Of a stretch of DNA of 64,000 bases, positions 1,459 through 62,541 are shown piece by piece. The stretch's first letter is position 1; each line of letters opens with the position of its first letter. Source of the stretch: an uncultured delta proteobacterium (GTDB lineage Bacteria; Desulfobacterota; Binatia; UBA9968); contig CAWDPO010000017.1 of NCBI GenBank assembly GCA_963804165.1, forward strand, positions 320,001 to 384,000. Reading direction: 5' to 3'. The translations under genes were made by a program, and so were the position numbers. The notes under the pieces are model-generated. The model was not told the origin of the DNA. It saw only the letters and a program-made list of their open reading frames with translations, and made no database searches.

Positions 1459-1461
1459 TTA

Positions 1462-3627: not shown

Positions 3628-3655
3628 TTACTAGTTCGTCTGCAGCGGTACGCTG

Positions 3656-4687: not shown

Positions 4688-4713
4688 AGGCTCTCCTTGT
4701 GAGAATACTCGAG

Positions 4714-5742
4714 TTACGTCCCCAATAGTTTTTTCATTCGTTCCACGACGTCCGGCGGTTGCGCTATGATTTCTTTTCCCAAAGCTTCCAGTTCTTCGCC
4801 GGAAACCGGATCCAATTCCAGCTTTTTCTTTTTGGCATCCTCAAGGAGCTCCGGATCGTTGACCGTCTTCATGAAGGCATCACGGAGAATCTTCACCCGG
4901 TCCGCCGGAATGCCGGGCGTGGCGACGATGGGACGACCGATTTCGTTGGCGGCTAGTATCACCGCCGCCAAGCGCTTCCCTGAATCGGGAGTTTTGTGTT
5001 GGTCCATGAGCTCGGGAAGTGTTGGAACGTCGGGCAAGAGAGCGTCCCGCTTTTTGCCGGTTTGAATGATGACCCGCACAAATCCTTTTTTGCGCCAGGT
5101 ATGAAAAGGCTCGCGGGCGAAAAAAGCGGCGATGGTGAATGCGCGGCATTGCACTTCGCCGCGCTCGACCGCAAGATCGACATCCGTGCCGGAGTTGTAA
5201 CCGGTGACGACGTTGAACTTCGCGCCGATCGTTTCCTCTAGGAGTTTGGGCAGGTAGTACGCCGACGATGCGGTGCCTTCGGCGCCGCACTTGGGCGGGA
5301 CGGAGGCTTTACGAATGTCTTCGATGGTTTTGTACGGTGTATCGCTGCGCATGTAGAGCAGATGATGCGATACGGTTGTGTTGCCGATCCAGGTAAACTT
5401 TTGCCAATCGAACTTGACCTCTTTTCGGCCGACCAGTTGATCGAAGTAGAGCGCAGGTTGGATCGAGCCGATGGTGAGGCCGTCTGGTTTGGCGACCTCG
5501 TAGATGTAGTTGGCCGCAACCATTGAGGCAACGCCGGGCATGTTTTGTACGATGATGTTGGGCGCACCAGGAATATGTTTGGGGATGAACTGGGCAACCA
5601 TGCGCGCGTAGAGATCGTACACGCTGCCGGCCGGCGTGCCCGCTACCAGCCGGATGGTTTTGCCCTGATAGAAGGGCGCTTGGGCTTGAACGAAAATAGG
5701 CGAGAGAACGACGAGGAGTAATGCTGAGATGCTTGGAAGCAT
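4714..5742 (-). CDS. tctC: TctC/Bug-family substrate-binding protein
   Basis: Start reassigned to ATG 5742 (MLPSISALLLVVLSPIFVQA-Q, GAGG upstream); TctC motifs. Confidence 0.9.
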   Translation of the reverse strand: MLPSISALLLVVLSPIFVQAQAPFYQGKTIRLVAGTPAGSVYDLYARMVAQFIPKHIPGAPNIIVQNMPGVASMVAANYIYEVAKPDGLTIGSIQPALYFDQLVGRKEVKFDWQKFTWIGNTTVSHHLLYMRSDTPYKTIEDIRKASVPPKCGAEGTASSAYYLPKLLEETIGAKFNVVTGYNSGTDVDLAVERGEVQCRAFTIAAFFAREPFHTWRKKGFVRVIIQTGKKRDALLPDVPTLPELMDQHKTPDSGKRLAAVILAANEIGRPIVATPGIPADRVKILRDAFMKTVNDPELLEDAKKKKLELDPVSGEELEALGKEIIAQPPDVVERMKKLLGT

Positions 5743-5955
5743 GAATGCCTCTTTATTTGGAACGCTACAGTTCCGGATAATCGGTTTGAATTGCGAATCT
5801 AAAAGGTCCAGCTGATTCCGTCGATAGAGTTCGTCAGTAGTTTTCCCGAAGCAATTCCGTTCGTCCCTTCGAGAAGACCTCAGCACGAATGGAGAAGATC
5901 AAAAAAGGATTGATCACTTTTCCATTCGTGTCGAGTGTCTCGCGGCATCAATTCG

Positions 5956-6981
5956 TCAGTCACCCAACAGCTTGCGCATGCGCGCGACAACGTCGGGCGG
6001 CGTAGCCATGACGTCTTTGGCCAAGGAGGCCATCTCATCCCACTGGGTCGGATCGATTTCGAGCCGGCGTTTTTCTGCCTCCGCCAAGAAGGCTCCTTCG
6101 GTGACTGTCTTGTCGAACGCATCGCGCAAAATCTTCACCCGGTCCAGCGGCACGCCCGGAGCAAAAACCAGCGGACGTCCGAAGTCGCCTGAAGCGAGAA
6201 TGACTTTGGCGAGGCTGCGTCCGGCATCACCGACTTTGTACCTGTCCATCGCCTCGTAAATTGTCGGAGATTCCTTAAGACGCGGATCGCGCTTGGTGCC
6301 GGTTTGGATGAGAACGTTGACAAAATTTTTCTTGCGCCAGGAAATGAAAGGCTCGCGGGCGTGGTACGCGGTAATCGTGAACGCGCGGCATTGCAACTCA
6401 CCGCGCTCGACGGCCAGATCGATATCCTGGCCCGACACGTAGCCCGACACGATATCGAACTTGGTGCCGAGGACTTCCTCCATGAGCTTCGGCATGTAGT
6501 ATCCGGTGGAGGCGACGCCGGTGGCGCCGCACTTGGGCGCGGTGTTGGCCTTGCGCACGTCGTCGACGGATTTGTAGGGCGTGTCGGCGCGCATATACAA
6601 GAGATGATTCGATTTGACCGGGCTACCGATCCAGAGAAACTTGCCCCAGTCGTATTTCGCTTCCGGTTTTTTGATCAATTGATCGAAATAAAGCGCCGGA
6701 TAAATCGCGCCGATCGTCAAGCCGTCCGGTTTCGTGACATTGTAGACGTGGTTGGCGGCGATCAACGAAGCAGCCCCGGGCATATTTTGCACGATGATGT
6801 TGGGATTGCCCGGTATGTGCTTGGTCATGTACTCCGCAAGCAGCCGCGGATAGAGATCGTAGACATCGCCGGCTTTGGTGCCGACGACGATGCTGATGGT
6901 CTTGCCCTGATAGAAGGGCGTCTGCGCCAGTAGAGCCGAGCTCCACCCGAGAGTGAGCACGAGGACGAGAATCAGAATCAT
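5956..6981 (-). CDS. tctC: TctC/Bug-family substrate-binding protein
   Basis: Start reassigned to ATG 6981 (AAGGAG RBS; MILILVLVLTLGWSSALLA-Q); TctC motifs. Confidence 0.9.
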   Translation of the reverse strand: MILILVLVLTLGWSSALLAQTPFYQGKTISIVVGTKAGDVYDLYPRLLAEYMTKHIPGNPNIIVQNMPGAASLIAANHVYNVTKPDGLTIGAIYPALYFDQLIKKPEAKYDWGKFLWIGSPVKSNHLLYMRADTPYKSVDDVRKANTAPKCGATGVASTGYYMPKLMEEVLGTKFDIVSGYVSGQDIDLAVERGELQCRAFTITAYHAREPFISWRKKNFVNVLIQTGTKRDPRLKESPTIYEAMDRYKVGDAGRSLAKVILASGDFGRPLVFAPGVPLDRVKILRDAFDKTVTEGAFLAEAEKRRLEIDPTQWDEMASLAKDVMATPPDVVARMRKLLGD

Positions 6982-7067
6982 AGTGTTTCTCCTTCCCGCC
7001 GGAATTTGGGCCGAAGCATATCCCTCAAGGCTGCTTGTGCGCAACCTTGAGGGGTGCCGACTGGTTG

Positions 7068-8102
7068 CTATTTTCCGCTCAACAATTTCTCCATACGCTG
7101 CACGACGTCCGGGGTTGACGCCATGACTTCTTTCGACAACGCCTCGATCTCCGCGCCGCTCGCCGGATCCATTTCGAGCCGGCGCTTTTCGGCGGTTGCC
7201 AAAAGCGCAGGATCGCTGACTGACTTGTCGAAGGCGTCGCGCAAAATCTTCATGCGGTCCGCAGGCACGCCTGGAGGGGTGACCAGAGGACGACCAAATT
7301 CGCCGGCAGACAAAACGACTTTCGCTAGGCTCCTTCCGGCGGCGCTGGTTTTGTATTTGTCCATCAACTCATAAATCGTCGGCGCGTCCTTGAGGCGCGC
7401 GTCGCGCTTGGCGCCGCTCTGCATCAGCGTGTTGACGAAACCGCGCTTGCGCCACGAGATGAAGGGTTCGCGGGCAAAATAAGCAGTGATCGTAAAGGCG
7501 CGGCAAACTACCTCGCCGCGCTCGACGGCGAGGTCGACGTCCTGGCCGGATTGATAACCTAAAACGATATCGAACTTCGTGCCGAGAGTTTCTTCCATGA
7601 GCTTCGGCAGATAGTAGCCGGTCGAAGTGATGCCGTTGGAGCCGCATTTCGGCGCTGCCGACGCATTCTTAATGTCGTCCATCGACTTATAAGGTGCATC
7701 CGAGCGCATGTACAAAAGATGATTCGACGTCACCGGGTTGCCGACCCAACCGAATTTCGGCCAATCGAACTTAACCTCGGGTTTTTTCGTGAGCTGCTCG
7801 AAATAGAGCGCCGGGTAAATCGCGCCGATCGTCAGGCCATCCGGCTTGGCGACAGTGTAAACTTGATTGGCCGCGATCATCGACGCGGCGCCGGGCACAT
7901 TCTGGATGATGATGTTCGGATTTCCGGGTATGTACTTCGGCATGAACTCGGCGAGCATGCGGGGATACAGGTCGTAAGCGTCGCCGGCCTTGGTGCCGAC
8001 GATAATCGTAATCGTTTTTCCTTGATAGAACGGGGTCTGGGCGTCGACATGACTGATCCCAAACAACGTCGTTAATAATAGGGCAACGAGCAAACGTAGC
8101 AT
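7068..8102 (-). CDS. tctC: TctC/Bug-family substrate-binding protein
   Basis: Signal peptide plus TctC motifs; GAGGAGG RBS. Confidence 0.92.
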   Translation of the reverse strand: MLRLLVALLLTTLFGISHVDAQTPFYQGKTITIIVGTKAGDAYDLYPRMLAEFMPKYIPGNPNIIIQNVPGAASMIAANQVYTVAKPDGLTIGAIYPALYFEQLTKKPEVKFDWPKFGWVGNPVTSNHLLYMRSDAPYKSMDDIKNASAAPKCGSNGITSTGYYLPKLMEETLGTKFDIVLGYQSGQDVDLAVERGEVVCRAFTITAYFAREPFISWRKRGFVNTLMQSGAKRDARLKDAPTIYELMDKYKTSAAGRSLAKVVLSAGEFGRPLVTPPGVPADRMKILRDAFDKSVSDPALLATAEKRRLEMDPASGAEIEALSKEVMASTPDVVQRMEKLLSGK

Positions 8103-8168
8103 TTAGTTCCTAACCTCCTCGGATAATTTTTTCCGCACGAACCTTACCATTTAAAAAGCTACTTTCAA

Positions 8169-9203
8169 CTAATTGCTGAGGATTTTTTTAACCCGGGCCA
8201 GGACATCCGGGGGCTGTTGCAAAATCTGCTGAGCAAGCTTTTCCAAACTCGCGCCGCTGGTCGGATCGACGTCCATTTTCTGTTTTTGCGTCTCGGCGAG
8301 CAGCTCAGGATCTTTCATGGCCTGATCGAACGCCTGACGCAGCATATTGACCCGGTCAGCCGGAATACCCGGCGTGCCAATGATCGGCCGTCCAAAGGAC
8401 TCGGCGGCGAGAATGACCTGGGCAACGCGGCGGCTGCTTTCCGGCACTTTTTCTTTCTCGAAGATCTCCGCGATCGTCGGCACGTCCGGGATTCTTTCGT
8501 CGCGTTTGGCACCGGTATAGAGGAGAACACGCACGAAGTTCTTCTTTTGCCAACTCAAGAACGGCTCGCGTCCAAAGTACGGCGACGCGGTCATGCCTCT
8601 GCACATGACTTCACCTTTTTCGACGGCGATGTCGATCTCGGATCCGCCCGGATAGCCGAGAACGGTGTTGATTTTCAAAGGCGGCAACGTGTCTTCAAGC
8701 ATGCGCGCGAGGATGAAATCGGTGCTCACGGTGCCGGTGGAGCCGCATTTGGGCGGCTCTTTGGCATTTTTGATATCGGCGATGGATTTGTACGGGCTAT
8801 CGGCGCGCATATAAAGAATCATCGGCTCACTCACCGGAGAGCCGATCCAGGCAAACTTGCGCAGGTCGAATTTCACTTCCGCACGGCCGACGATCTGGTC
8901 GAGATAAAGTCCACTGCTGGGAAAACCGATGGTCAGGCCGTCGGGCTTGGCCACGCTGTAGACGTAATTGGCCGCAACCACCGAGCCCGCGCCCGGCATA
9001 TTCTGCACGATGAAAGTGGGGTTACCCGGAATATATTTCGGCATGTAGCGCGCGAGCAGGCGCGCCCAGCGATCGTAAAAACCGCCGGTGGTAAAACCGA
9101 CGACCACTCGGATCTGCTTCTCTTGATAAAATGGCGTGGCTTGGGCGTGAAGCTGCGAAACCCAGGCAAAGACTAGACTTAGCGCTAAAATTGCAACTGT
9201 CAT
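8169..9203 (-). CDS. tctC: TctC/Bug-family substrate-binding protein
   Basis: Start reassigned to ATG 9203 (GGAG RBS; MTVAILALSLVFAWVSQLHA-Q); TctC motifs. Confidence 0.9.
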   Translation of the reverse strand: MTVAILALSLVFAWVSQLHAQATPFYQEKQIRVVVGFTTGGFYDRWARLLARYMPKYIPGNPTFIVQNMPGAGSVVAANYVYSVAKPDGLTIGFPSSGLYLDQIVGRAEVKFDLRKFAWIGSPVSEPMILYMRADSPYKSIADIKNAKEPPKCGSTGTVSTDFILARMLEDTLPPLKINTVLGYPGGSEIDIAVEKGEVMCRGMTASPYFGREPFLSWQKKNFVRVLLYTGAKRDERIPDVPTIAEIFEKEKVPESSRRVAQVILAAESFGRPIIGTPGIPADRVNMLRQAFDQAMKDPELLAETQKQKMDVDPTSGASLEKLAQQILQQPPDVLARVKKILSN

Positions 9204-9261
9204 GTGTCTCCCTTTTGTTCGCACCACCTTCGGATCGCGGTGCCGAGGATTTTGCACGTGC

Positions 9262-10350
9262 TTATTCAAGAAGTTTTTTGACGCGTTTGAGGACGGCCGG
9301 GGGTTGATTCATAACTCTTTTCGCCAATGCCTGCAGCTGTTCGCCGGTGACCAGCTCGATGTCCATGCGCGCTTTCTTGGCCTCGGCCAAAAGCTCGAGA
9401 TTATTCATAGCTTTGACGTAGGCCTCGCGGAGTATATTCACCCGGTCCGCCGGCGTGCCCGGCGCCACGATCATGGGCCGGCCGAAGTCGCCGCCGCGCA
9501 AAATGACATCAGCGACCCGACGGCTCTCATCCGCAGTATTTTCCTTATCAAAAATCTCGTAAATCGTCGGCACCTCTCCGACGCGCGCATCGCGCTTCTC
9601 CGAGGTTTGCAGGATATGTTGATCGAAACCTTTCTTGTGCCAGGTATCGAAAGGCTCGCGGCCGAAGTGGGGGGCAATGGTCATGCCGCGGCACTGAACT
9701 TCGCCCTTTTCCACGGCGATATCGATTTCACTGCCGCCGGCGTATCCCAAGATCGTGTTGATCTTGATGCCCAGCGTGTCCTCGAGCACTCGCGCGATCA
9801 AGTAGTCGGCGCCGGCCGTACCGGTGGCGCCGCACTTGGGCGGCTCGGGCAGTTTCCTCATGTCCTGGACGGATTTGAACGGAGCATCGGCGCGCGCGTA
9901 GAGGATGATATCGCTTTTCTCCGGCGAGCCGATGAAGTAGCCCTTGGTGATATCGAAGCGGACTTCTTTGCGCCCGGCGATTTGATCGAGATAGACGCCG
10001 TAGTTGGGCATGACGAGGGTAAGTCCGTCGGGTTTGGCGACGCCGAAAACATGGTTCATCGCGATCATCGATCCCGCGCCCGCCATGTTCTGGACGATGA
10101 AGTTAGGATTTCCCGGAATGTAAAGAGGCATAAAGCGGCCGAGCAGGCGCGCCCAGCGATCATAAAAGCCGCCCGGAGTGAGACCGACGATGATGCGGAG
10201 GGTCTTGCCTTGGTAAAAATTCGCCTGCGCGAATGTTTGTTCAACGTTGAAAGGGTTCAAGAGTTCAAGGACAGAGAAGACTAAGACTCCGAACACCTTG
10301 AACATTTGAACTTTTGAATCTTTGAATCGATTTTTCGAGAAATTGTTCAT
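9262..10350 (-). CDS. tctC: TctC/Bug-family substrate-binding protein
   Basis: TctC motifs; repeat-encoded leader; GAGGT RBS. Confidence 0.92.
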   Translation of the reverse strand: MNNFSKNRFKDSKVQMFKVFGVLVFSVLELLNPFNVEQTFAQANFYQGKTLRIIVGLTPGGFYDRWARLLGRFMPLYIPGNPNFIVQNMAGAGSMIAMNHVFGVAKPDGLTLVMPNYGVYLDQIAGRKEVRFDITKGYFIGSPEKSDIILYARADAPFKSVQDMRKLPEPPKCGATGTAGADYLIARVLEDTLGIKINTILGYAGGSEIDIAVEKGEVQCRGMTIAPHFGREPFDTWHKKGFDQHILQTSEKRDARVGEVPTIYEIFDKENTADESRRVADVILRGGDFGRPMIVAPGTPADRVNILREAYVKAMNNLELLAEAKKARMDIELVTGEQLQALAKRVMNQPPAVLKRVKKLLE

Positions 10351-10358
10351 AACTTACC

Positions 10359-11450
10359 TCACTCCACCAAGACTTTTTTCACCCGCTCGACGACATCGCG
10401 CGGCTGATTCATCAGCTCTTTCATTAACCCTTGGAGTTCTTCGCCCGGGGTATGTTCCATGTCCATTTGACCCTTTTTTGCTTCTTCAATCAGGCCCGGG
10501 TCGCGCATCGCCTTGGCGTAGGCATCGCGCAACAACTTGACTCGATCCGGTGGGTTTCCGGGTCCGGCGACCATCGGCCGGCCAAATTCCCCGCTCGCCA
10601 TAATAATCCGCGCCACGCCGCGCATCACTTCGGGAGATTTGTATTGATCCATCAGCTCGAACAGCGTCGGCGCATCGCCCATGCGCGGATCACGCTTGGG
10701 TCCGCCTTGAAGAATATGGCGGTCGAAGCCTTTCTTGTGCCAACTGTCGAACGGCTCCCGGCCAAAATGCGGCGGGATGTCCATGCCGCGGCAAATGATC
10801 TCGCCGCGCTCGACGGCGACATCGATTTCAGAGCCGCCTTGATATCCGCTCACGGTGTTGAGTTTCGCCTTGAAAGCCTCGTCCATGATTTTGGCGAGCA
10901 AGTAACCGGTGCTCGCGGTGCCCGTCGAGCCGCACTTCGGCGGTTCTTTCGCTTGAATAATATCGCTGACGTTCTTGAACGGACTATCGGCGCGAAAATA
11001 AAGCATGGTCGGCGCTTTTTCCTGGGTGCCGATAAATTCAAATTTGCGCATGTCGAACTTGACTTCCCTGCGCCCGACGATTTGATCTAAATAGAGACTG
11101 TTGATCGGCACGAGCAGCGTCAGCCCATCTGCCTTAGCCAGATTGTAGACGTAGTTGGCGGCGATCACCGAGCTGGCGCCGGGCATATTTTGCACGACGA
11201 AATTGGGATTGCCGGGAATGTGTTTCGGCATGTAGCGCGACAGCAAGCGCGCCCAACGGTCGTAAAAGCCGCCGGGGGTGAAGCCGACGATGATGCGAAC
11301 GGTCTTGCCTTGGTAAAAATTCGCTTGCGCGAATGTTTGTTCAACGTTCAAAGGGTTCAAGAGTTCAAGGACAGAGAAAATTAGGACTCCGACAACCTTG
11401 AACGTTTGAACTTTTGAACCTTTGAACCGATTTTTCGAGAGATTGTTCAT
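10359..11450 (-). CDS. tctC: TctC/Bug-family substrate-binding protein
   Basis: TctC motifs; repeat-encoded leader; GAGGT RBS. Confidence 0.92.
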   Translation of the reverse strand: MNNLSKNRFKGSKVQTFKVVGVLIFSVLELLNPLNVEQTFAQANFYQGKTVRIIVGFTPGGFYDRWARLLSRYMPKHIPGNPNFVVQNMPGASSVIAANYVYNLAKADGLTLLVPINSLYLDQIVGRREVKFDMRKFEFIGTQEKAPTMLYFRADSPFKNVSDIIQAKEPPKCGSTGTASTGYLLAKIMDEAFKAKLNTVSGYQGGSEIDVAVERGEIICRGMDIPPHFGREPFDSWHKKGFDRHILQGGPKRDPRMGDAPTLFELMDQYKSPEVMRGVARIIMASGEFGRPMVAGPGNPPDRVKLLRDAYAKAMRDPGLIEEAKKGQMDMEHTPGEELQGLMKELMNQPRDVVERVKKVLVE

Positions 11451-11458
11451 GACTTACC

Positions 11459-12526
11459 TCAGTCGGCAAGAATTTTTTTGACGAGATCGACGACCTCGCG
11501 CGGCTGGTTCAAAAGCCCTTTCATCTGCGCTTGGAGCTCTTCGCCGGGGGTGTGGACCAGGTCCATCTGGCCTTTTTTCGCCTCGTCGATCAAGCCTGGG
11601 TCGCGCATCGCTTTCCCGTAGGCATCGCGCAGCGCTTTGATTCGATCCGGCGGCACTCCCGGCCCAGCCATCATCGGACGGCCAAACTCGCCGCTGGCTA
11701 GCACGATACGGGTAAGATCGCGCATGACCGCGGGTGATTTGTACTGGTCCAATAATTCGAAAAGCGTTGGGACCTCCGCCAGGCGCGGATCACGCTTCGG
11801 TCCGCCTTGGAAAATATGCCGGTCAAAGCCTTTTTTATGCCAGCCGTCGAAGGGCTCGCGGCCAAAGTGCGGCGGCACATCCATCTCGCGGCATACCAGT
11901 TCGCCGCGCTCGACGGCGAGGTCGATCTCGCTGCCGCCCGGGTATCCGGTCACGCTGATGGTCTTTGCATTGAATGCCTCGATCAAAAGCTTCGAGACGA
12001 TATACGCGGTACTCGCGGTGCCCGTGGAACCGCATTTCGGCGGCTCTTTCGCCTGAATGATATCGCCGAGAGACTTGATCGGACTGTCGGCGCGAAAATA
12101 CATCATGGTCGGCGTCTTTTCCTGACTGCCGATATACTCAAACTTGCGCATGTCGTACTTCACTTCGCGCCGGCCGACGATCTGATCGAGGTGCAAGCTG
12201 TTGATGGGCATGAGCAGCGTCAGGCCGTCACTCTTGGCGACGTTGTAAACGTAGTTGGTGGCAACGACCGAGCTCGCGCCGGGCATGTTCTGGACGACGA
12301 AACTGGGATTGCCCGGAACATATTGCGGAATGTAACGGGAAAGCAGCCGAGCCCAGCGATCGTAAAAGCCGCCGGGCGTGGTGCCGACGATGATACGCAC
12401 CGTCTTGCCGCTGTAAAACGGCTCGACCTGAGCATGACCGCTTCGGCTAAGGCTGAGCGCGATTACTACGCAAGCGACTGCGAATCCGAGAGAGCCGCTT
12501 AACCTTGCGAGGTTTCGTGCCTTCAT
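11459..12526 (-). CDS. tctC: TctC/Bug-family substrate-binding protein
   Basis: Start reassigned to ATG 12526 (AAGGAGG RBS; MKARNLARL...SGHA-Q); TctC motifs. Confidence 0.9.
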   Translation of the reverse strand: MKARNLARLSGSLGFAVACVVIALSLSRSGHAQVEPFYSGKTVRIIVGTTPGGFYDRWARLLSRYIPQYVPGNPSFVVQNMPGASSVVATNYVYNVAKSDGLTLLMPINSLHLDQIVGRREVKYDMRKFEYIGSQEKTPTMMYFRADSPIKSLGDIIQAKEPPKCGSTGTASTAYIVSKLLIEAFNAKTISVTGYPGGSEIDLAVERGELVCREMDVPPHFGREPFDGWHKKGFDRHIFQGGPKRDPRLAEVPTLFELLDQYKSPAVMRDLTRIVLASGEFGRPMMAGPGVPPDRIKALRDAYGKAMRDPGLIDEAKKGQMDLVHTPGEELQAQMKGLLNQPREVVDLVKKILAD

Positions 12527-12659
12527 CGCAGGCCCCTCCTTGAGACCGATTGTCAGACTACGGGTTCGACAGTCTAGATCCTTTCCCGCAGACGAATGGG
12601 CGATTCGGCCGAGATACTGGGCAGTGGCTAATTTTTGCGGTGGGCCGAAAGGAAACGAA

Positions 12660-13160
12660 CTATGCGCCCAAACCAAGCCACGTAATGATCAATCCTTCCG
12701 GGAACGGTAGGGTCAGCAACTTGACAAATAGACCATAAAAAAAGAGCCACGCGATGACGGTCAGCGTGATCGATAAGACCCACGGCTCGCCGCCCTGGAA
12801 CCTGAAGTAGGCGAACATCATTAGTGGGATTGCGATGGGAAAGCCCAACAGCCAAATCGAAAAAAAGAAACCTAACAGCCATGAAAACATGATGATTGCT
12901 CTTTTCTTGGCGGTTACCGGGTCAACGTCCTTGGTAAACTGAAAATCCATCGGAGTTGGAGGAGCTCCGTCGTCCGACTGTTTGGCCTTGACGCCTTTCA
13001 AGTCCAGGATGACTTGAATCCCTGCGAAAATCACCATCGGAATACCGATGACCCAGGGATAGAGTCGCGCCTGGGGACGCCATTCGTAAGCCATATAAAC
13101 AAACACGCAAAAAAATATGAAAGCACAAAAGCTAAATATAGCCGCGGGTCTGATCTTCAA
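12660..13160 (-). CDS. tctB: TctB-family small membrane subunit of tripartite tricarboxylate transporter
   Basis: About 165 aa with 4-5 TM segments, ARLYP..IG, LLGF and FVKLLTLPFPEG ends; probable TTG start after AAGGAG; heads the tctC array. Confidence 0.85.
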   Translation of the reverse strand: MKIRPAAIFSFCAFIFFCVFVYMAYEWRPQARLYPWVIGIPMVIFAGIQVILDLKGVKAKQSDDGAPPTPMDFQFTKDVDPVTAKKRAIIMFSWLLGFFFSIWLLGFPIAIPLMMFAYFRFQGGEPWVLSITLTVIAWLFFYGLFVKLLTLPFPEGLIITWLGLGA

Positions 13161-13466
13161 CGCAAACTCCTTCCGAAATAATTCTGACAATGTGAAACGG
13201 CCAAGCCCTTTGGCGCAGCGGAATCTAACAGAGTTCTCGACCTTCGTCCATCGCTGCTGGTCATCGTAAACGCATTAAAATTACGCGGCCTATCCCTGCT
13301 ACAATCCCGACTTGCGCCTCTCGCTTAGCACAGAGACGAGCGATGGGTCAATGACCGGTTGCTCTTTCGTTGACGACGCGAGGTATGATAAATGGACTTG
13401 AATTACCCGTGAAATATTGACCCGCGATCGACGAGTTGCATCGCGCACAAAAGGAACTACTCGACC

Positions 13467-38110: not shown

Positions 38111-38182
38111 AAATCTCCCTTGCCCCTCTTTAGTAAAGAGGGGTGAGAATTGCACGGAGGAAAAGGGGGACAAGGGGGATTT
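38111..38182. repeat. CCCCT/AGGGG REP-like hairpin pair between convergent genes
   Basis: aaatctcccttgcccctctttagtaaagagggg ... aagggggattt; related copy at 42692-42782. Confidence 0.7.
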
Positions 38183-40682: not shown

Positions 40683-40827
40683 CGCGTTCAAGCCGTTCAA
40701 ATCGTTCAACGCGTTCAAATCGTAAGGCGAATGTCGGTCGGTGGTCGGCGCGGGCGGAGGCTCTTTCAAACGTCGGGAAACCGTACTAAATAATAGAAAG
40801 CCAAATTATTTCAAGGAGACTTTGACC

Positions 40828-41916
40828 GTGGGAATTATCGATGCCGATACTCATATCGATGAAACCGATGACACCTGGGAGTACATGCAAGAAGCGGATG
40901 TGCAGTTCAAACCGGCGACCGCTTATCCGTCGAATCCGGATCCGAAGCTGCCGCCGGCGCGCTACTGGTTGATCGACGGCAAGCGCCAGATTCGCTTCAT
41001 TCGCAGCGACAAAGACTCGGGCACCACCGTGGCGACGCGCGAGCTGCTCGACGTCAAGGCGCGGCTCAAGCACATGGATGAGCTGGGCACGGATACCCAA
41101 GTGATTTATCCGACGCTTTTCTTGATGGAGGCGACGGAAAAGCCGGAGCTCAATTCGGCGATGCGCCGCAGCTATAACCGTTGGTTAGGCGACCGCTGCA
41201 GTCAATCGGGCGGACGACTGCGCTGGGTTTGCATGCCGCCGCTGCAGAAAATGGACGAAGCCTTGGCGGAAGTACGCTGGTCAAAAGAGCACGGCGCCTG
41301 CGGCATCTTGAAAAAAGGCGACCGCGAAGCGGGTAAGTATCCCGCTGATCCGTACTTCGAGCCCCTGTACGCGGAAGCGGAGAAGCTCGATCTGCCGATC
41401 TGCATTCACACCGGCTCGGGCGTGCCGGATTTCTCGCCGGCGCGGGAATTCTCCCACGGCCAGTTCATGCGCACGAAGGCGGCGGCGATGAACGGCATCA
41501 TCGGCCTGATTCTGCATAAGATCCCGACGAAATTTCCGAAGCTCCGCATCGGTTGCATCGAAGCCGGTTCCATGTGGGCGCCGTTTGTCGCCTACGATCT
41601 GCGCCGGCAACAGCTTCGTCAGCAGGGGCGCGAGAGCACGAGCGTGCTCGGTGTCCCGTTGCTGAACCTGGCGCAAAATGTATTTCAGGAAAATCGCGTC
41701 TATATCACCTGCCAGGTCGACGAGGATCTTCCATATATTATTAAATCCGTCGGCGAAGACAATTTGATGGTCGGCTCCGATTACACCCATCGCGATCCGT
41801 CGATGGAGCTTGAATTTCGCAAGGAGCTGCAAGCGCGCGCGGACAAGGGCGATATCCCGCAATCGGCCGTGCAAAAAATTCTCTACGACAACCCGAAGGC
41901 GTTTTACGGATTATAG
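40828..41916 (+). CDS. amidohydrolase_2 family protein
   Basis: GTG start after AAGGAG; IIDADTH, QVIYPT, PICIHTG, GSDYTH. Confidence 0.9.
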   Translation: MGIIDADTHIDETDDTWEYMQEADVQFKPATAYPSNPDPKLPPARYWLIDGKRQIRFIRSDKDSGTTVATRELLDVKARLKHMDELGTDTQVIYPTLFLMEATEKPELNSAMRRSYNRWLGDRCSQSGGRLRWVCMPPLQKMDEALAEVRWSKEHGACGILKKGDREAGKYPADPYFEPLYAEAEKLDLPICIHTGSGVPDFSPAREFSHGQFMRTKAAAMNGIIGLILHKIPTKFPKLRIGCIEAGSMWAPFVAYDLRRQQLRQQGRESTSVLGVPLLNLAQNVFQENRVYITCQVDEDLPYIIKSVGEDNLMVGSDYTHRDPSMELEFRKELQARADKGDIPQSAVQKILYDNPKAFYGL

Positions 41917-41964
41917 AACATGTTGTTCGGTCGTAGTTCAATTTGGATTTTTCAATCTATCAGC

Positions 41965-42026
41965 GTAGGGGCAGGCTCCTGTGCCTGCCCTGGGTCGAAC
42001 GGGCAACCACAGGGGGTTGCCCCTAC
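41965..42026. repeat. GTAG-type REP doublet
   Basis: gtaggggcaggc..gcctgccc and gggcaacc..ggttgcccctac in inverted orientation. Confidence 0.75.
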
Positions 42027-42046
42027 GAATTTCAGGAGGTCATGAG

Positions 42047-42598
42047 ATGATTGTTCTCAGTCCAGAAGGAAAAGCGCAAACGTCGGCGGCGAAAGTCGCG
42101 AGTTTGCCGCAGTTCACGGAACTGCGGGGCAAAGTGTTGGGTCTGCTCGATAATAGCAAGCCCAACATGGACAAGCTGGCCGAGCGCTTCGCCGAACAGC
42201 TCAAGGAAAAATACGGCGTCGCCAAGGTGATTAGCCGCCGAAAGCTCACTGCCCAGCAGGGCGCGCCCAAACAATATCTCGACGAACTGGCCTCGCAGGC
42301 TGATTTTGTTATTAGCGGGCTCGGTGATTGAGGATCGTGCACGTCGTGGAGTGTCCACGACTCAATCGAGATTCAAAAGCGCGGCCGCTTTGCGATCACG
42401 GTGATTACCCACGCCTTCGCCGCGTTGGCGAAATCTGAGAAGGAAGCCTTTGGCGCTCCGGATCATCCCGTGCTGGTCGTGCAGCATCCGATCGGCACGG
42501 TGAAGATCGAAGAAGTGAATAAAAAAGCCGACGCGGCGTTCAGTAAGCTGATCGAGATTCTGCTCGCGCCAGAGGCGGCGAGGACGAAAGTCGCGTAA
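42047..42598 (+). CDS. UGSC-motif selenoprotein (183 aa; Sec at TGA 42329-42331)
   Basis: AGGAGG RBS; frame stays open past TGA: ...ISGLGD-U-GSCTSWSVHDSIEIQKRG...; joins track ORFs 41981..42331 and 42401..42598 in frame; paralogue at 55645 has TGA at the same position. Confidence 0.88.
42343..42361 (+). promoter_or_regulatory. putative bacterial SECIS hairpin
   Basis: GTCGTGGA-GTG-TCCACGAC, a perfect 8-bp stem starting 11 nt after the UGA. Confidence 0.8.
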
Positions 42599-42857
42599 CC
42601 AAATTCGTTTCGGTTTCGGCTTCAAGTTCAGCGGCGTCTCGGAAATTCGTTCACAAAGTTTTTAGAGTTGGCAGCAGGTGAAGTCGAACGCAAATCCCCC
42701 TGTATCCCCCTTTTTTCAAAGGGGGGATTTTGTTCCGTGTGGTTCTCACCCCTCTTTGACAAAGAGGGGAAGGGGAGATTTCTCCGATGGAATGCCGTGG
42801 CAATAATTCAGCGACCTTCCGGAACAGGATATTAGCGCGTAGCCAGAGAAAGCGATT

Positions 42858-43910
42858 ATGACTACAGCAGCACTTCAAGCGGAACGTTTCGAAATACCCG
42901 ACGATATTTGGGCGGCGCAGGCTTTTTTCGAAGAAAAAGGTTGGGGTGATGGTTTACCGATCATTCCACCGACGGAAGAACGAGTGGCGCAAATGCTCGC
43001 GGCGACCAAGCGCAAACCCGACGAAGTGATCGGTGCGGTGCCGCCGCGCTGGGCTCAAGCGACGGTGGAGAAGATCGCCATCAACGGCGTGATGGCGGGC
43101 TGCAAGCCGGAATATATGCCGGTGCTGATCGCCGCGGCCGAAGCGCTCACCGATCCCAAGCTCAATCTCTATGCGTTGCAAGCGACGACCGGAGGGCCAG
43201 CGGTGATGCTCATCATCAACGGGCCGATCCGCAATCAGTTGAACATCAACGGCGGGTCCAATGCGTTGGGCGAAGGATGGCGCGCCAACGCGACCATCGG
43301 CCGCTTCGTGCAACTGGTGAAACGCAATATCGGCGGCTCCTATCCCGGCACGACCTGCAAGGCGACTCTAGGTTGGCCTGGAAAATATTCCATCTGCGTC
43401 GGCGAAAACGAGGAGGCGAGCCCGTGGGAGCCGCTGCACGTCGAGCGCGGCTTCAAAGCGGAGCAAAGCACGGTCACGGCGATCAGCGCGGATGCGTCGA
43501 TCCGCGCATCGGATTTGGACAGCTCGACGGCTGAAGGCGTGCTGATCAATTTCGCGCAGAAAATGGACGGACCGTCGGGGCCGGAAGCGATCATGGTAAT
43601 TTGCCCCGAGCACGCCAAGATCATCGCCGGCGATGGTTTCAGCAAAAAGGACGTTCAGAAATTCATCTGGGAGCGCGCCGCCTATCGTATGAAAGATCTT
43701 CCCGACGAGACTTTCGAGCAGCGCGTCAAGCGCCGATCGGATCTAAAGCTGACGCGCGACAGCATTATTCCCGTAACCGATAGGCCCGAGGACATACTCG
43801 TCATCGTCGCCGGCGGCGACGGCTCGCAGTCGCAGTACATTCACGTCTGGGGACAAAGCACGCCCGAGGGCGGGTCGACGAGATCGGTCACTAAAATAAT
43901 CAAAGATTAA
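42858..43910 (+). CDS. conserved hypothetical protein, partner of the UGSC selenoprotein
   Basis: DGLPIIPPTEERV..ML, EKIAINGVMAGC.PEY, ANATIGR, GWPGKY, SPWEP motifs shared with 56747..57814. Confidence 0.8.
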   Translation: MTTAALQAERFEIPDDIWAAQAFFEEKGWGDGLPIIPPTEERVAQMLAATKRKPDEVIGAVPPRWAQATVEKIAINGVMAGCKPEYMPVLIAAAEALTDPKLNLYALQATTGGPAVMLIINGPIRNQLNINGGSNALGEGWRANATIGRFVQLVKRNIGGSYPGTTCKATLGWPGKYSICVGENEEASPWEPLHVERGFKAEQSTVTAISADASIRASDLDSSTAEGVLINFAQKMDGPSGPEAIMVICPEHAKIIAGDGFSKKDVQKFIWERAAYRMKDLPDETFEQRVKRRSDLKLTRDSIIPVTDRPEDILVIVAGGDGSQSQYIHVWGQSTPEGGSTRSVTKIIKD

Positions 43911-44013
43911 GAGTTCCAAACGTTCAAATCGTTCCAGTCGTTCCAATCGTTTCGGATAGCGCTTGTCCGATGTATTACCCTCGCCCGCTCGCGGGAGAGG
44001 GGAGGGTGAGGGC

Positions 44014-44989
44014 GTGCATCGACCTTTCCTATTCATCAGCCTGCTTTTGAGCTTGTTGTCCCGTGGTGACATTTCTTTCGCCGCCGACAAGTTGCGCATA
44101 AGCTACTCGGGTACAACGACGAGCAACGCGCTCCTTTGGGTGACCAAGGAAGCGAAACTTTTTGATAGGAACGGCATCGACGCCGAAGTGCTTTACCTGG
44201 CTGCGTCGCTCGGCCAGACCGCGTTGATTGCGGGAGAGACTCAGTTCGCGGTTTACACCGGACTGTTGATGACGCCAACCCGGCTTGCAAGGCGCCGACG
44301 TGACGATGATCGCGGGATTTCTAAATTATTTAGTCTCCCGCTTGGTCGTGCGTCCCGACATCAAGACCGCTGCGGACTTGAAAGGCAAACGTTTGGCTGT
44401 GTCGCGCTTCGGCACGGCGTCGGATTTCGGCACCCGTCTCATGGTTTCCAAGCTCGGTTTGAATCCCGACACCGACGTTACGATTCTGCAGATCGGCGAT
44501 ACGCCGACCCGCGTCGCCGCGATGATGGCGAAGGGCGTGGACGGCGCGATCTTCGATCCGCCGGATCACAAGCGTGCGGTCGAAAACGGCGGCCGCATCA
44601 TGATGAACCTGGAAGAAACTGTGATTCCCTACCAACACGCCGGCTTGATGACGACGCGAAAGTACATCGCCGCCCGGCCGGATATCGTCAGACGTGTGGT
44701 CAAATCGATCGTCGAGGGCGCCGCGGTGGTGCGCAAAGATCCCGAGACCACCAAGCGAGCGCTGTCGGTCCGCATGCGCATCAAAGATCCCAAGGACCTC
44801 GAAGAAACCTATCAGCAGCTGCGCGGTTTCACGCAAGCCAAACCTTATCCGAGCCTCGAAGGTTTCAAAGCGATCTTGAATGATTTGTCGAAGCGCATGC
44901 CCGCGGCGAAAAATGCTGATCCCAAAGATTTTGCCGATCTCCGGTTTATCGAGGAATTGGACAAGTCGGGTTATATCGATGGGCTCTAG
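44014..44989 (+). CDS. ABC substrate-binding protein, NMT1/SsuA-like (frameshift near 44285)
   Basis: GTG start after GGAGG; ADKLRISYSG; DLKGKRLAVSRFGTASDF; ELDKSGYIDGL. Confidence 0.82.
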
Positions 44990-45064
44990 AACCGTTCCAA
45001 GTTCAATGTTCAAAGTTCAAAGTCGGACGATGCTATTGCATACGCGTGGGCGGTCTGGCTCGCG

Positions 45065-46022
45065 GTGATGCTTTTCATCTTGCCAGATTCGAGCGGTGCC
45101 GCCGACAAGCTCCGCATCGGCTACTCCGGAGCGACAGTCAGCAATGCGATGCTCTGGGTGACCGATGAAGGCAAGCTCTTTCAGAAAAACGGCATCGATC
45201 CGCAAATACTCTACCTGCAAACGACCCTTGGACAGACGGCAATGATTGCCGGCGAGATCGACATGTGCGTCTATTCCGGCAGTCTGCTTTCGTCGGCGCG
45301 GTTGCAGGGCGTCGACGTGGTCATGGTCGTGAGTTTTCTCAACAAGCCGCTATATCGGCTGGTGGTTCGCCCCGAGATTCGTACTGTCGCCGATCTCAAA
45401 GGAAAGCGGCTCGGCATCACGCGCTTCGGCACGGTCACCGATTCGATGTCCCGGCTCCTGGTTGGGCAGACTCGGGCTGGATCCGGATAGAGACGTTTCC
45501 TACGTACAGGTCGGCGACGTACCGGTGCTTCTAGCGTCCTTATCCAGCGGCAGGATCATTGACGGCGCGATCATTCAACCGCCTTACTATGTCAAAGCCG
45601 TAGCTTCCGGCATGCATGTTTTAGTCAACATGCAAGAGATGGATCTGCCGGTTCAGCAAACGGGCCTGAATACGACGCAAAAGTTTATTGCAAAAAATCC
45701 CGACGTCGTGCGACGAGCCGTCAAGTCCGTGATCGAAGGAATTCATCTAATGCGCACCAATCCCGCCGTGGCCAAGCGGGCGCTCTCCAAGCGCATGCAA
45801 ATCAAAGACGAAAAGGAGATTGGAGGATACCTATCAATTCTCAAAAGTTTCATTCAGGTGAAACCGTATCCGTCACTCTGGAAGGTTTCAGAACGATCTT
45901 CGAAGATCTGGCGAAAGCGGGTGCCGGCGGCGAAAACCGCCAACGCGAAGGAATATGTGGATACTCGATTCATCGACGAGCTGGACAAGTCCGGCTATAT
46001 CGACGGACTGTATCGCCAGTGA
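45065..46022 (+). CDS. ABC substrate-binding protein, NMT1/SsuA-like (frameshift near 45465; start uncertain)
   Basis: ADKLRIGYSG, DLKGKRLGITRFG, ELDKSGYIDGLY; paralogue of the upstream gene. Confidence 0.8.
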
Positions 46023-55644: not shown

Positions 55645-56208
55645 ATGGCGACGATCAAATTTCTCGATCCGAGAGTGACGATCAATCCCAAAGACCGGCC
55701 GCTGGTGCCGGGTCTGGATACGCTCGAAGGGAAAGTTGTCGGCATCATCGATAACGGGCAGGCCAACTCGACGACGATGTTTCAAGAACTCGCGCAACTG
55801 ATGCAAGAACAATTTCATACCAAAGAAGTTCTGTTCAAGACCAAACCGACGCACATGCAGGGAGCGCCGAAACCGATCATGGAGGAAATCTTAAGCCGGT
55901 GTGACGCAGTGATCACCGGTTTAGGCGCCTGAGGGTCGTGCACGTCGTGGAGTGTCCACGACGCCATCGAATTGCAAGAGAAAGGAAAGCCGACGGTAAC
56001 GCTGTGCCAGTCGATCTTCATGGAGCTGGCGCGCACCGAGGCGAAGTTTTTCGGCATTGTTAAATTGCCTCTGGTTGAAATCCCGCATCATCCCAGCGGC
56101 GGCGCGCGGCCTGGCGAACACCGGGCGGATGCCGAGGGCGCGATTAGTCTAGTTAATGAGCAGTTGACGTTGGGAGGGGATGGGTTGAAGAAGACGCGGG
56201 CGGGGTGA
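55645..56208 (+). CDS. UGSC-motif selenoprotein (187 aa; Sec at TGA 55930-55932)
   Basis: AGGAGG upstream; ...DAVITGLGA-U-GSCTSWSVHDAIELQEKGKPTV...; joins track ORFs 55645..55932 and 55972..56208 in frame. Confidence 0.88.
55944..55962 (+). promoter_or_regulatory. putative bacterial SECIS hairpin
   Basis: GTCGTGGA-GTG-TCCACGAC 11 nt after the UGA; identical to 42343-42361. Confidence 0.8.
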
Positions 56209-56270
56209 CGGGGAAAACGTGTTGCAAATTTGCAATGTGTGATTGAGTTTGTGTGTCTTGAGTAGGCGAT

Positions 56271-56680
56271 TCCTTTCCCCCTTGCGGGGAAAGGAAAGGA
56301 TAGGGGGTATGAACGCAAATAGAACGCGAGCTCGCCAGCTGCGGAAAAACCTAAGCAAAGCCGAACGATTGCTCTGGCGAAGATTACGGTTCTGGCAAGT
56401 AGACGGCTTCAAATTTCGTCGCCAACAGCCTTTGGGAAACTATATTGTTGATTTTGTCTCTTTGGAAAGACGATTGATCATTGAAGTGGACGGCGGACAG
56501 CATGCTGAAGATATGAATTATGATACCGACCGTGATGCTTGGCTACGTAATCAAGGTTTCGTGATTCTAAGATTCTGGAATAACGATGTGTTGAAGAACA
56601 TAGACGGCGTAGTGGAAGTGATTGCCAAGAATTTACAAAATACCCCCTTCCTCATTCCTTCCCCGCAAGGGGGAAGGAGG
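56271..56680. mobile_element. putative REP-flanked DUF559 cassette
   Basis: About 38-bp imperfect inverted arms (56271-56308 and 56642-56680) enclosing an AT-richer nuclease ORF. Confidence 0.55.
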
Positions 56681-56722
56681 TTAAGAACGAGGAGAAATGC
56701 CTCGTCGCCCTCTCGTCTTTAA
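56309..56722 (+). CDS. DUF559 / very-short-patch-repair-like endonuclease
   Basis: RARQLRKN...AERLLW..LR, FKFRRQ..GNYIVDF, IIEVDGGQH, RDAWL..QGF..LRFWNNDV. Confidence 0.9.
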   Translation: MNANRTRARQLRKNLSKAERLLWRRLRFWQVDGFKFRRQQPLGNYIVDFVSLERRLIIEVDGGQHAEDMNYDTDRDAWLRNQGFVILRFWNNDVLKNIDGVVEVIAKNLQNTPFLIPSPQGGRRLRTRRNASSPSRL

Positions 56723-56746
56723 ATGTGTGACTTGGAGCGTTCCATA

Positions 56747-57814
56747 ATGAAAACTCTCACCTCAAACCTCATCGAAGTCGAAGATAGCTGGGAAGCGGTC
56801 AATGACTGGTTCTGCAACGAAAAACTGAGCGACGGGTTGCCGATCGTGCCGCCGACGCCGGAGCGGGTCGAGAAAATGCTCGGCGCGACGGCGCGCGATC
56901 CGCAGGAAATCATCGGGCCGATACCGCCGAAGTGGGCGCCGTGCTCGATCGAGAAGATCGCGATCAATGCGGTCATGGCCGGATGCCTGCCGGAATATCT
57001 GCCGGTGATTGTCGCCGCAGTCGAAGCGATCTGCGAGCCGCGCTTCAATCTTTACGGCGTGCAGGCGACGACGGGATATGTCGGACCCGCGCTGCTGCTC
57101 AACGGTCCGATCAGAAAGCAGCTCAACGTCAATTGCGACTCGGGTGTATTCGGTCCCGGCTTTCGCTCCAACGCGACCATCGGCCGCGCCATGCGATTGA
57201 TTCTAATTACCGTCGGTGGCGGCTATCCGGGCGACACGGATCGATCGACGTTTGGCTGGCCGGGCAAGTACACGATGTGCTTCGGCGAAAATCAGGAGAA
57301 AAGTCCCTGGGAGCCGTACCACGTCGAATTCGGCTTTAAACCCGACGAAAGCGCCGTCACGGTGTTCGGCATCAACGGCTTTCTACCGATTCACACCGCC
57401 GGCAATCGCGGCGAGCAGGCGCTCTCGTCATTGGCAGAAGTAATCAAGATGCATCACGGCGTGAGCCATCTCGACGTCGGCAGCTTCGGCGGCGGCACGC
57501 CGCTGATCGCGCTCGGCATCGAAGACGCGGAAATCATGGCGCGTGACGGCATTACCAAGAAACAGGTCAAAGATTATTTGTGGGAGCATGCGTCGCTCAA
57601 GTTCTCCGAGATTCCTGCGCGCCGCAAAGGGCACAAGAGCGACGACGAGTTATTAAAAGACGCGCCGCACGTCACGCCCGATATGGTTGTCCATCTCTCA
57701 TCGAAGCCGGAAGACATCATGGTGATTGTCGTCGGCGGCAAGCACCGGCATTCCGTCTTCCTACCGATGTGGACGGGGCGCAATACGCTGTGTGTGATAA
57801 AGCCAATTCGATAG
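56747..57814 (+). CDS. conserved hypothetical protein, partner of the UGSC selenoprotein
   Basis: DGLPIVPPTPERVEKML, EKIAINAVMAGCLPEY, SNATIGR, GWPGKY; paralogue of 42858..43910. Confidence 0.8.
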   Translation: MKTLTSNLIEVEDSWEAVNDWFCNEKLSDGLPIVPPTPERVEKMLGATARDPQEIIGPIPPKWAPCSIEKIAINAVMAGCLPEYLPVIVAAVEAICEPRFNLYGVQATTGYVGPALLLNGPIRKQLNVNCDSGVFGPGFRSNATIGRAMRLILITVGGGYPGDTDRSTFGWPGKYTMCFGENQEKSPWEPYHVEFGFKPDESAVTVFGINGFLPIHTAGNRGEQALSSLAEVIKMHHGVSHLDVGSFGGGTPLIALGIEDAEIMARDGITKKQVKDYLWEHASLKFSEIPARRKGHKSDDELLKDAPHVTPDMVVHLSSKPEDIMVIVVGGKHRHSVFLPMWTGRNTLCVIKPIR

Positions 57815-60459: not shown

Positions 60460-61968
<1,509 letters not shown>

Positions 61969-62169
61969 TGAAAAGATTTGGGATTGGGAAATGAAACTCG
62001 AGCCATTGATCACATATTGGCGTGGGCAGTTTGCGGACGAAGAGCGACGCTATGCCTGGCTCACGGTCATTCCGGTAATGCAGCTCCGCGCAGGCGTCGG
62101 TGCCGCAAACGGAGTGGTCCTATGGTTTTCGCAAAAGTCTCAGCACGTTTGAGAGGAGCGAGGTAAATC

Positions 62170-62541
62170 ATGGCAGACAAATCGATTCTGATCGTTGACG
62201 ACAATCCGGTGAACTCAAAACTCATCCGTGTCTTGTTGGCCGGAGAGGGATATGAAGTTCACACCGCGGCAGATGCCGAGGCGGCAATACGGGTCTTAGG
62301 GGGACTAAATCCGGATTTGATCCTAATGGATGTACAACTTCCGGGAATCGATGGTCTTGAATTGACCCGGCGGCTAAAGGCGGATCCGGCAACTCGGGGA
62401 ATCAAGATTCTCGGATTGACCGCGTATGCGATGAAAGGGGACAAGGAAAAAATATTGGCGGCCGGCTGTGACGGCTACATCGCGAAACCCATTGACACAC
62501 GCACATTGCCCAAGGTGATCGAGCACTATTTGGAAAGATGA
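62170..62541 (+). CDS. single-domain response regulator (CheY/DivK-like)
   Basis: ILIVDDN, LILMDVQLPGIDG, LTAYAMKGD, YIAKP. Confidence 0.93.
   Translation: MADKSILIVDDNPVNSKLIRVLLAGEGYEVHTAADAEAAIRVLGGLNPDLILMDVQLPGIDGLELTRRLKADPATRGIKILGLTAYAMKGDKEKILAAGCDGYIAKPIDTRTLPKVIEHYLER

Follow-up and report, generated by a model that had tools for sequence, protein, structure and literature searches.

A 64-kb stretch of DNA from an uncultured delta proteobacterium (contig CAWDPO010000017.1; referred to here as the window) very probably encodes, at positions 42047-42598, a single 183-residue selenoprotein of the UGSC family, in which an in-frame UGA would be decoded as selenocysteine (Sec) by means of a hairpin lying just downstream, and which may work together with the product of the next gene. 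We call this gene copy 1, a paralogue (copy 2) being present further along the window. Copy 1 is a plain member of an already defined selenoprotein family and differs from it in nothing essential. What is decisive for the Sec codon and for its selenocysteine insertion sequence (SECIS) element is the comparison with relatives, rather than the single sequence.

The earlier note on this DNA, which was drawn from the letters alone, had described a TGA followed by an open GSCTSWSVHD frame with a UxxC motif, and an 8-bp stem with a GUG loop 11 nucleotides (nt) past this TGA, and had stated that a UGSC (seleno)protein family was already defined. The frame proved correct to the base, the codons after the TGA being GGA TCG TGC ACG TCG TGG AGT GTC CAC GAC (G-S-C-T-S-W-S-V-H-D), and it remains open until the TAA stop; the hairpin is found where it had been placed (Table 1). 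Furthermore, the read-through protein scores 132.2 bits with NF041046, "UGSC family (seleno)protein" (curated cut-off 125), and 155.1 bits with Pfam PF24696 (cut-off 25), the latter match covering residues 3-173 and thus spanning the TGA. As in the family described by these two profiles, the protein is about 180 amino acids (aa) long and has U-G-S-C at the conserved position, with the TGA aligned to Cys. Among 52 family sequences, C95 (the Sec codon being read as C), S97 and C98 are fully invariant and G96 is nearly so. The search for homologues with Cys at the UGA position, proposed as a check, was also successful: a first protein search, with 19 aligned sequences, contained four of them (P0005, P0036, P0041, and P0043), to which six plasmid genes with TGC or TGT can be added.

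Table 1. Features of the window considered in this work; positions are those of the 64-kb stretch.
Feature	Position	Strand	Details
Amidohydro_2 gene	40741..41916	+	Directly upstream of copy 1; PF04909, 83.7 bits
Shine-Dalgarno-like AGGAGG	42034..42039	+	7 nt before the ATG (42047) of copy 1; read directly, putative role
UGSC family selenoprotein gene, copy 1	42047..42598	+	183 codons, Sec at codon 95, TAA stop 42596-42598; from the frame read through the TGA and the NF041046 and PF24696 scores
In-frame TGA, proposed Sec codon of the U-G-S-C motif	42329..42331	+	From the sequence and from Cys at this position in homologues
SECIS-like hairpin	42343..42361	+	8-bp stem GTCGTGGA/TCCACGAC (42343-42350, 42354-42361) with GUG loop; nt 15-33 counted from the U of the UGA
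Partner gene 1	42858..43910	+	350 aa, 'Unknown_1' of the GOS study; invariant Cys82 in M-A-G-C
UGSC family selenoprotein gene, copy 2	55645..56208	+	187 codons; Sec TGA 55930-55932; hairpin 55944-55962; true stop TGA 56206-56208
Partner gene 2	56723..57814	+	363 aa, 42% identical to partner 1 (E = 2e-101); no family

The hairpin downstream of the TGA

A scan of one genome per species gave 603 relatives, of which the best 80 loci were kept for comparison; they come from Binatia or "delta proteobacterium" metagenome-assembled genomes (MAGs; best segment up to 93% identical), Burkholderiales, Dehalococcoidia, and others, and the DNA of the window is probably that of a Binatia-like organism. TGA stands at 87 of 87 sites of the CTSWS[VI]HD type in these loci and the window, a count that is biased because the scan used this peptide pattern, itself tied to the hairpin, and that carries no information on the ratio of Sec to Cys forms in the family. 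Within the hairpin, synonymous codons are close to frozen when compared with the share of the codons of each residue elsewhere in the same genes. The Ser codon of the loop is AGT at 87/87 sites (10% background) and that of the stem TCG in 85/87 (35%), His is written CAC in 83/87 (39%), Val is GTC in 42/42 (31%) and Ile is ATC in 45/45 (66%). Ahead of the hairpin, the codons for Gly and Ser that come right after the TGA vary freely, with all four third bases in use, and the synonymous freezing is confined to the hairpin. In addition, 98.8% of the stem cells are paired in 86 sequences (84 distinct; L021 was left out of the pair counts as its contig stops inside the hairpin), and pairing falls to 16-54% when the 3′ arm is slid by 1-3 columns. 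Compensatory changes from G-C to A-U were found in four loci, as TCA with CAT (L032 and L038) and as ACA with GAT (L017 and L040).

The Cys forms provided a control, for which we used nine plasmid loci reached through the partner protein described below and folded the same 19 positions. The TGA-type genes of Acidovorax and Paracoccus retain the hairpin (-11.1 and -9.3 kcal/mol), whereas in the six Cys-type genes (TGC or TGT) it is weakened or gone: -8.2 and -6.3 kcal/mol in two Natrinema genes, -7.5 in Halalkalicoccus, -2.3 in Roseovarius, -4.4 in Embleya, and 0.0 in Arthrobacter. None of the six has the AGT loop codon, and the peptide itself drifts in Cys-type genes (TSWCVYD, SSWTMHD, CSCCIRD, and SSCSVFD). 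The Embleya Cys form keeps T-S-W-S-x-H-D but writes it with TCC and AGC, and its stem is broken. The ninth locus, from Neorhizobium, had no UGSC gene that we could find. The near-frozen T-S-W-S-[V/I]-H-D peptide and codons of the Sec forms are explained by the location of the hairpin inside the coding sequence, and the comparison between Sec and Cys forms would be a clear case of an in-frame SECIS freezing the codons and the peptide that it overlaps.

Two further observations concern the form and position of the hairpin. A divergent subfamily with U-G-S-C-T-P-A-V-L-R-A (L043:4574, L045:9973, and L076:8896), whose partner is a separate paralogue (31-36% identical to partner 2 of the window), carries a different GC-rich hairpin whose stem also begins at nt 15 and which has GU in its loop. 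In the window, the 19-mer of the hairpin occurs exactly twice, at the same 11-nt distance past the in-frame TGA in copy 1 and in copy 2, while shuffles expect no occurrence.

What is expected of a SECIS, a stem-loop that is conserved immediately 3′ of the UGA and shows G-U in its apical loop, is present as judged by sequence comparison, and the SECIS-like character that the earlier note gave to the hairpin is supported by the frozen codons, the stem pairing, the weakening or absence in Cys forms and the second hairpin type of the divergent subfamily. The note had also stated that bacterial SECIS elements lie directly 3′ of the UGA, with an 11-nt spacing in E. coli fdhF, in agreement with the E. 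coli element as presented in PMC8659212, where a stem-loop of 17 nt (nt 15-31) stands at a distance of 11 nt from the UGA and G23 and U24 are important. Like the fdhF SECIS of E. coli, the hairpin of the window sits inside the coding sequence and starts 11 nt after the TGA, at nt 15, its apical loop being G23-U24-R25. Unlike it, it is a perfect 8-bp stem with a 3-nt loop in which no bulged U17 is apparent, and we found for it neither a conserved lower stem nor a match to an Rfam model.

Other palindromes surround copy 1. A 27-nt imperfect inverted repeat lies upstream of it and two G/C-tract hairpins downstream (41964-42027 and 42692-42769), and a related palindrome, CCCCTCTTT..AAAGAGGGG, is found at 38123 (38123-38143). 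These intergenic palindromes may be elements like the repetitive extragenic palindromes (REP) or terminators.

Reading through the TGA

Several results weigh against a SECIS-directed Sec codon. For the 60 nt that follow the TGA, folding does not exceed that of dinucleotide shuffles (z = -1.30, 19 of 200 as good) and the folding of the 40 nt after it is also within the shuffles (z = -0.88, 32 of 200 as good); as they are not significant for either stretch, these single-sequence fold statistics were left out of the evidence. Inverted repeats of at least 8 nt number 10 in the same 1-kb region, and Rfam gave no match either with the whole window at gathering scores or with 42280-42430 at E <= 10. 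Covariation is thin, with six of the eight stem pairs never varying and double changes in four cells only, because the stem overlaps invariant residues. No tRNA-Sec was found in the 64-kb window (ARAGORN, 0 tRNAs), nor any Pfam family belonging to Sec machinery (selA, selB, and selD) in the 56 window open reading frames (ORFs) scanned. Finally, copy 2, which is 38% identical to copy 1, scores 112 bits with NF041046, under the NCBIfam cut-off of 125.

If the TGA were a real stop, the locus would consist either of two small genes, one of 94 aa and one starting at the GTG at 42401, or of a pseudogene with a nonsense mutation. ORF calling with table 11 yields exactly such a split, 41981-42331 and 42401-42598, public protein sets contain many N-terminal UGSC fragments of about 100-140 aa, and no Sec machinery was detected within the window. 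The earlier note had stated that gene callers split such genes, and both the N-terminal database fragments and the gene of Paracoccus ferrooxidans, annotated as two hypothetical proteins, bear this out (RefSeq labels the Cys forms by NF041046). In fact, the standard table-11 call cuts both UGSC genes of the window short, at codon 95 or 96, and the same error is found in public records. A stop is difficult to reconcile with the retention of the TGA at all the motif sites counted above, in many lineages and in both window paralogues, with profiles (NF041046 and PF24696) that span it and with Cys forms that are single contiguous proteins. Moreover, in the 13 codons that separate the hairpin from the GTG (codons 12-24 after the TGA), 21 close relatives vary at 7 first, 3 second, and 13 third positions, and this dominance of third-position variation before any alternative start indicates that the frame is translated through the TGA. 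The GTG is itself unconserved, relatives having L or F there. The homologues do not end at this codon with a separate gene downstream, the outcome that the note had named as contradicting its proposal, and the codons past the hairpin vary mainly at third positions. We regard a real stop as very improbable.

Another idea is that TGA is here an ordinary sense codon for Trp or Gly, as in codes 4 or 25, without selenocysteine. It is true that 10 full-length homologues of the first protein search print W at the Sec position (P0002-P0004, P0006-P0008, P0019, P0024, P0025, and P0029), as gene calling under code 4 would do. However, 13 of the 47 Pfam-supported ORFs of the window stop at TGA, at lengths that fit their families, and copy 2 itself ends with TGA, so that TGA is an ordinary stop and a general reassignment is excluded. 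A conserved hairpin that is lost in Cys forms would also have no role under a simple reassignment, which makes this explanation exceedingly improbable. The W is most simply taken as an artefact of gene calling, likely of TGA called under code 4 on short metagenome contigs, and it is an artefact that hides selenoproteins in protein databases. Decoding of the TGA as Sec in one continuous gene is thus the reading that we retain.

The partner protein and a possible function

The family has been in print since 2008 as the 'UGSC-containing protein' of Zhang and Gladyshev (PMC2398784). In that Global Ocean Sampling (GOS) study it counts as a major UxxC family, for which Table 2 gives 255 sequences with Sec and 21 with Cys, and the same source places it among the most abundant selenoprotein families of ocean and freshwater metagenomes (PMC2398784). 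A 2022 review also lists it (PMC9312934), and a 2026 review includes NF041046 among the selenoproteins whose functions "remain largely uncharacterized" (PMC13188914). Where these sources group the UGSC proteins, it is with thioredoxin-like redox proteins, of unknown function (PMC2398784, PMC13188914). Among the papers listed by a whole-word search for "UGSC" in the literature since 2015, none characterises a UGSC protein. Four comparative results make the role of the family testable in cultivable carriers: the near-obligate pairing or fusion with a partner, a flavodoxin-like predicted fold, a weak similarity to GrdB and PrdB, and occasional trxB/trxA neighbours.

The gene that follows copy 1 encodes this partner, whose sequence matches the "UGSC/Unknown_1" alignment A-[VI]-N-[GA]-V-M-A-G-C-[KR]-P-E-Y-[ML]-P in Fig S1A of the GOS study (PMC2398784 supplement 1). 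Neither partner protein of the window belongs to any Pfam or NCBIfam family. More than 7000 relatives exist in the protein collection, and among the matches listed (120) all are unnamed or 'hypothetical'. In the partner alignment, C82 (within M-A-G-C) does not vary at all and C180 hardly varies. The 85 sites in the loci comprise 74 with at least 1200 nt of downstream sequence and 11 with too little. At 73 of the 74 the partner is the next gene on the same strand, the exception being L077, and six of the 11 hold a partial partner copy. At 22 sites both genes are fused in frame, with no stop besides the Sec TGA, although two of these fusion ORFs run off the contig and one (L023) is short. The fusions came from the DNA of the loci, as no fused longer relative was scored in the protein collection. 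Association or fusion with 'Unknown_1' is a feature shared with the UGSC family of the GOS study, in which the fusion was published in 2008 (PMC2398784). What is new here is the extent of the pairing, which, with one gene order or the other, spreads over Binatia, Burkholderiales-type betaproteobacteria, Dehalococcoidia, haloarchaea, Rhodobacterales, and Actinomycetota, with a spacer of about 6 to 650 nt among relatives. Synteny and fusion together point to a putative physical association between both proteins.

In several related MAG loci (L003, L020, and L065) the partner gene is split between two frames. A plasmid of Neorhizobium galegae (L087, 2501-4479) carries a trxB-like gene directly behind a partner homologue, with no UGSC gene detectable within 2.5 kb, and the partner family may also work without UGSC.

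The AlphaFold2 (AF2) model of the UGSC protein has a predicted local distance difference test (pLDDT) score of 91.8 and consists of five alternating strand-helix units, with U95 between strand 87-93 and helix 96-111. The best Foldseek matches in the PDB are flavodoxin-like, namely azoreductases, a flavodoxin-like domain, CheY-type receivers, and the FeoB G-domain (template modelling score, TM, 0.37-0.51 normalised to the query). No thioredoxin-named protein is among the PDB matches listed, and the model does not fall into the thioredoxin fold, although one listed match, the complex I subunit 8e9i_O, may have it. The profile of the family gave two chance-level matches to PDB sequences, and the natural Cys homologue P0005 no usable match in the ESM Atlas. 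The UGSC protein is thus predicted to be a flavodoxin-like alternating beta-alpha domain with U-G-S-C at a helix N-terminus, an arrangement typical of redox-active selenol/thiol pairs. Like the Trx-like and Prx-like selenoproteins of the GOS study, it combines UxxC at a helix start with Cys homologues and a high abundance in environmental metagenomes; unlike the UxxC selenoproteins of thioredoxin fold, its model has five alternating beta-alpha units and flavodoxin-like PDB matches.

The model of the partner is also of good quality by its scores (pLDDT 88.5, predicted TM score (pTM) 0.90), and the nearest ESM Atlas clusters are unnamed or automatically named 'Thioredoxin family protein', with no common Pfam family. 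A class I fumarate hydratase alpha fold was considered for it from the best Foldseek match (7xky_A, E = 1.3e-4) and rejected, the superposition being too poor (TM 0.23-0.27, root-mean-square deviation 18).

Comparison with NCBIfam models gave a lead to more remote relatives. At E <= 0.01, 17 of the 52 UGSC members matched GrdB (TIGR01917, best 8.7e-8), four TIGR01918, two GrdF, and one GrdH, and a divergent member matched PrdB (TIGR04483, 2.8e-5). The matched stretches contain the Sec of UGSC: residues 83-167 of L067 correspond to model positions 327-406 of 431, and residues 77-172 of L043 to model positions 129-219 of 238. Like selenoprotein B of the glycine, sarcosine, betaine, and D-proline reductases (the GrdB/PrdB type), UGSC has Sec in U-x-x-C, shows a recurrent weak profile similarity over about 80-95 residues around it and would work with a second subunit. 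Unlike GrdB, it has about 180 aa and not the 431 positions of the GrdB model (238 in that of PrdB). Unlike the GrdB/PrdB systems, its partner has no similarity to the pyruvoyl proproteins GrdE and PrdA, and no GrdA-like gene was seen. UGSC hosts are probably for the most part aerobic bacteria of soil and water, whereas those of the reductases are amino-acid-fermenting anaerobes. The grd operons presumably stand beside trxB/trxA, as the UGSC gene does in some genomes. We consider this similarity a lead to remote homology, suggested by sequence profiles, and not membership.

As the weak similarity to GrdB, PrdB, and the sarcosine reductase B protein lies around Sec, we propose a scheme in which a selenolate attacks the substrate. 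Selenocysteine would be inserted at the UGA of copy 1: as for fdhF in E. coli, SelB with its Sec-tRNA(Sec) would be recruited to the ribosome by the mRNA hairpin, whose apical loop exposes G23 and U24. The enzyme would have two parts, UGSC as a small redox subunit and the partner, with its invariant Cys82, as the large one, both being fused into one polypeptide in other lineages. The selenolate may attack a substrate held by the partner, Cys98 would resolve the adduct to give a selenenylsulfide, and the thioredoxin system, whose trxB/trxA genes are encoded beside the pair in some lineages, would reduce it again. Fusion, motif geometry, weak similarity, and neighbourhood are all consistent with UGSC being a selenol/thiol redox subunit of flavodoxin-like fold, which thioredoxin would recycle and which would be a relative of GrdB/PrdB. 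Taken further, UGSC and its obligate partner could form an uncharacterised Se-dependent reductase, derived distantly from the GrdB/PrdB Sec domain and recycled by thioredoxin, that, in aerobic lineages of soil and freshwater and in haloarchaea, cleaves reductively an organic acid or amino acid taken up by the cell. We put this forward as a tentative possibility; if true, a selenoprotein family that is among the most abundant in the environment would thereby receive a function.

Several results count against such a reductase. The scores with GrdB and PrdB are far under the curated cut-offs (for example, 21.8 against 602.2 bits), and Pfam GRDB matched none of the 52 UGSC members at E <= 0.1. The partner profile had 0 matches to PDB sequences, and 69 partner sequences gave only scattered weak matches to NCBIfam, none of them to GrdE or PrdA. 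A trxB-like gene was found in 6 of 89 loci, and in neither the window nor the other 83.

The protein could also be a true UGSC selenoprotein that acts as a free-standing thiol/selenol oxidoreductase, a thioredoxin-like antioxidant whose neighbourhood and fusions reflect a loose coupling. This would agree with its place among thioredoxin-like redox proteins in the literature cited above (as far as PMC2398784 and PMC13188914 go), with L077, the one locus with enough room that lacks the partner, and with the reversed gene order of Roseovarius and Arthrobacter. We regard it as unlikely, since 73 of 74 sites, distributed over Binatia, Burkholderiales, Dehalococcoidia, haloarchaea, and Actinomycetota, have the partner alongside, 22 sites show in-frame fusions, the partner has an invariant Cys, and the predicted UGSC fold is flavodoxin-like and not thioredoxin-like.

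Gene neighbourhood and second copy

Thioredoxin system genes accompany the pair in a few lineages: the order is trxB-trxA-partner-UGSC in the Arthrobacter plasmid and partner-UGSC-trxB in Roseovarius, and a trxB-like gene directly follows the module in an Acidiferrales locus (L022). Amidohydrolase-type genes also recur, as Amidohydro_2 in the window and its Binatia relatives and as DUF6282 or amidohydrolase in Natrinema and L077, and in one haloarchaeal operon an amidohydrolase gene is found with the module. The Amidohydro_2 gene upstream of copy 1 may belong to the UGSC context. With the window proteins as queries, the amidohydrolase matched in 18 of 80 loci and the NMT1-type binding protein in 12, of which Binatia-like relatives supply 13 and 12, respectively, and in these relatives common ancestry accounts for the matches.

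No universal third gene was found, the neighbours in 50 distant loci being heterogeneous. Their 94 neighbour ORFs include TctC (20), aconitase (4), phosphoenolpyruvate mutase (3), 5-enolpyruvylshikimate-3-phosphate synthase (3), and response regulators (3). TctC genes are very numerous in Burkholderiales, and for this reason the TctC neighbours were not taken as a specific link. The frequent neighbours are solute-binding proteins for organic acids (TctC, NMT1, and DctP) and coenzyme A-transferases, which are also very common in these genomes generally. In L077 (2902-4395) what comes after the UGSC gene is a DUF6282-like gene and no partner, and in the Natrinema plasmids L082 and L084 DUF6282 comes after the partner; DUF6282 may be a further component of the module.

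Copy 2 resembles copy 1 in its arrangement (Table 1), and its N-terminal half scores 54.6 bits with PF24696 (cut-off 25). A gene of the DUF559 family (endonuclease-like, 159 aa, 56243-56722) lies between copy 2 and partner 2, ending one base before the partner start, and may be an inserted selfish gene.

Elsewhere in the window, two NMT1-family solute-binding protein genes just past partner 1 (43963-44989 and 45047-46022) switch frame midway, from 1 to 2 near 44200-44285 and from 2 to 3 near 45442-45462; they are pseudogenes or contain assembly indels. On the minus strand, 379-13190 holds eleven tandem TctC-family paralogues and then a TctB gene, an unusually long head-to-tail array of a single family. 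Finally, at 60460-62541 there is a histidine kinase whose N-terminal domain resembles that of ethylene receptors (PF25487, 138 bits), followed by a single-domain response regulator.

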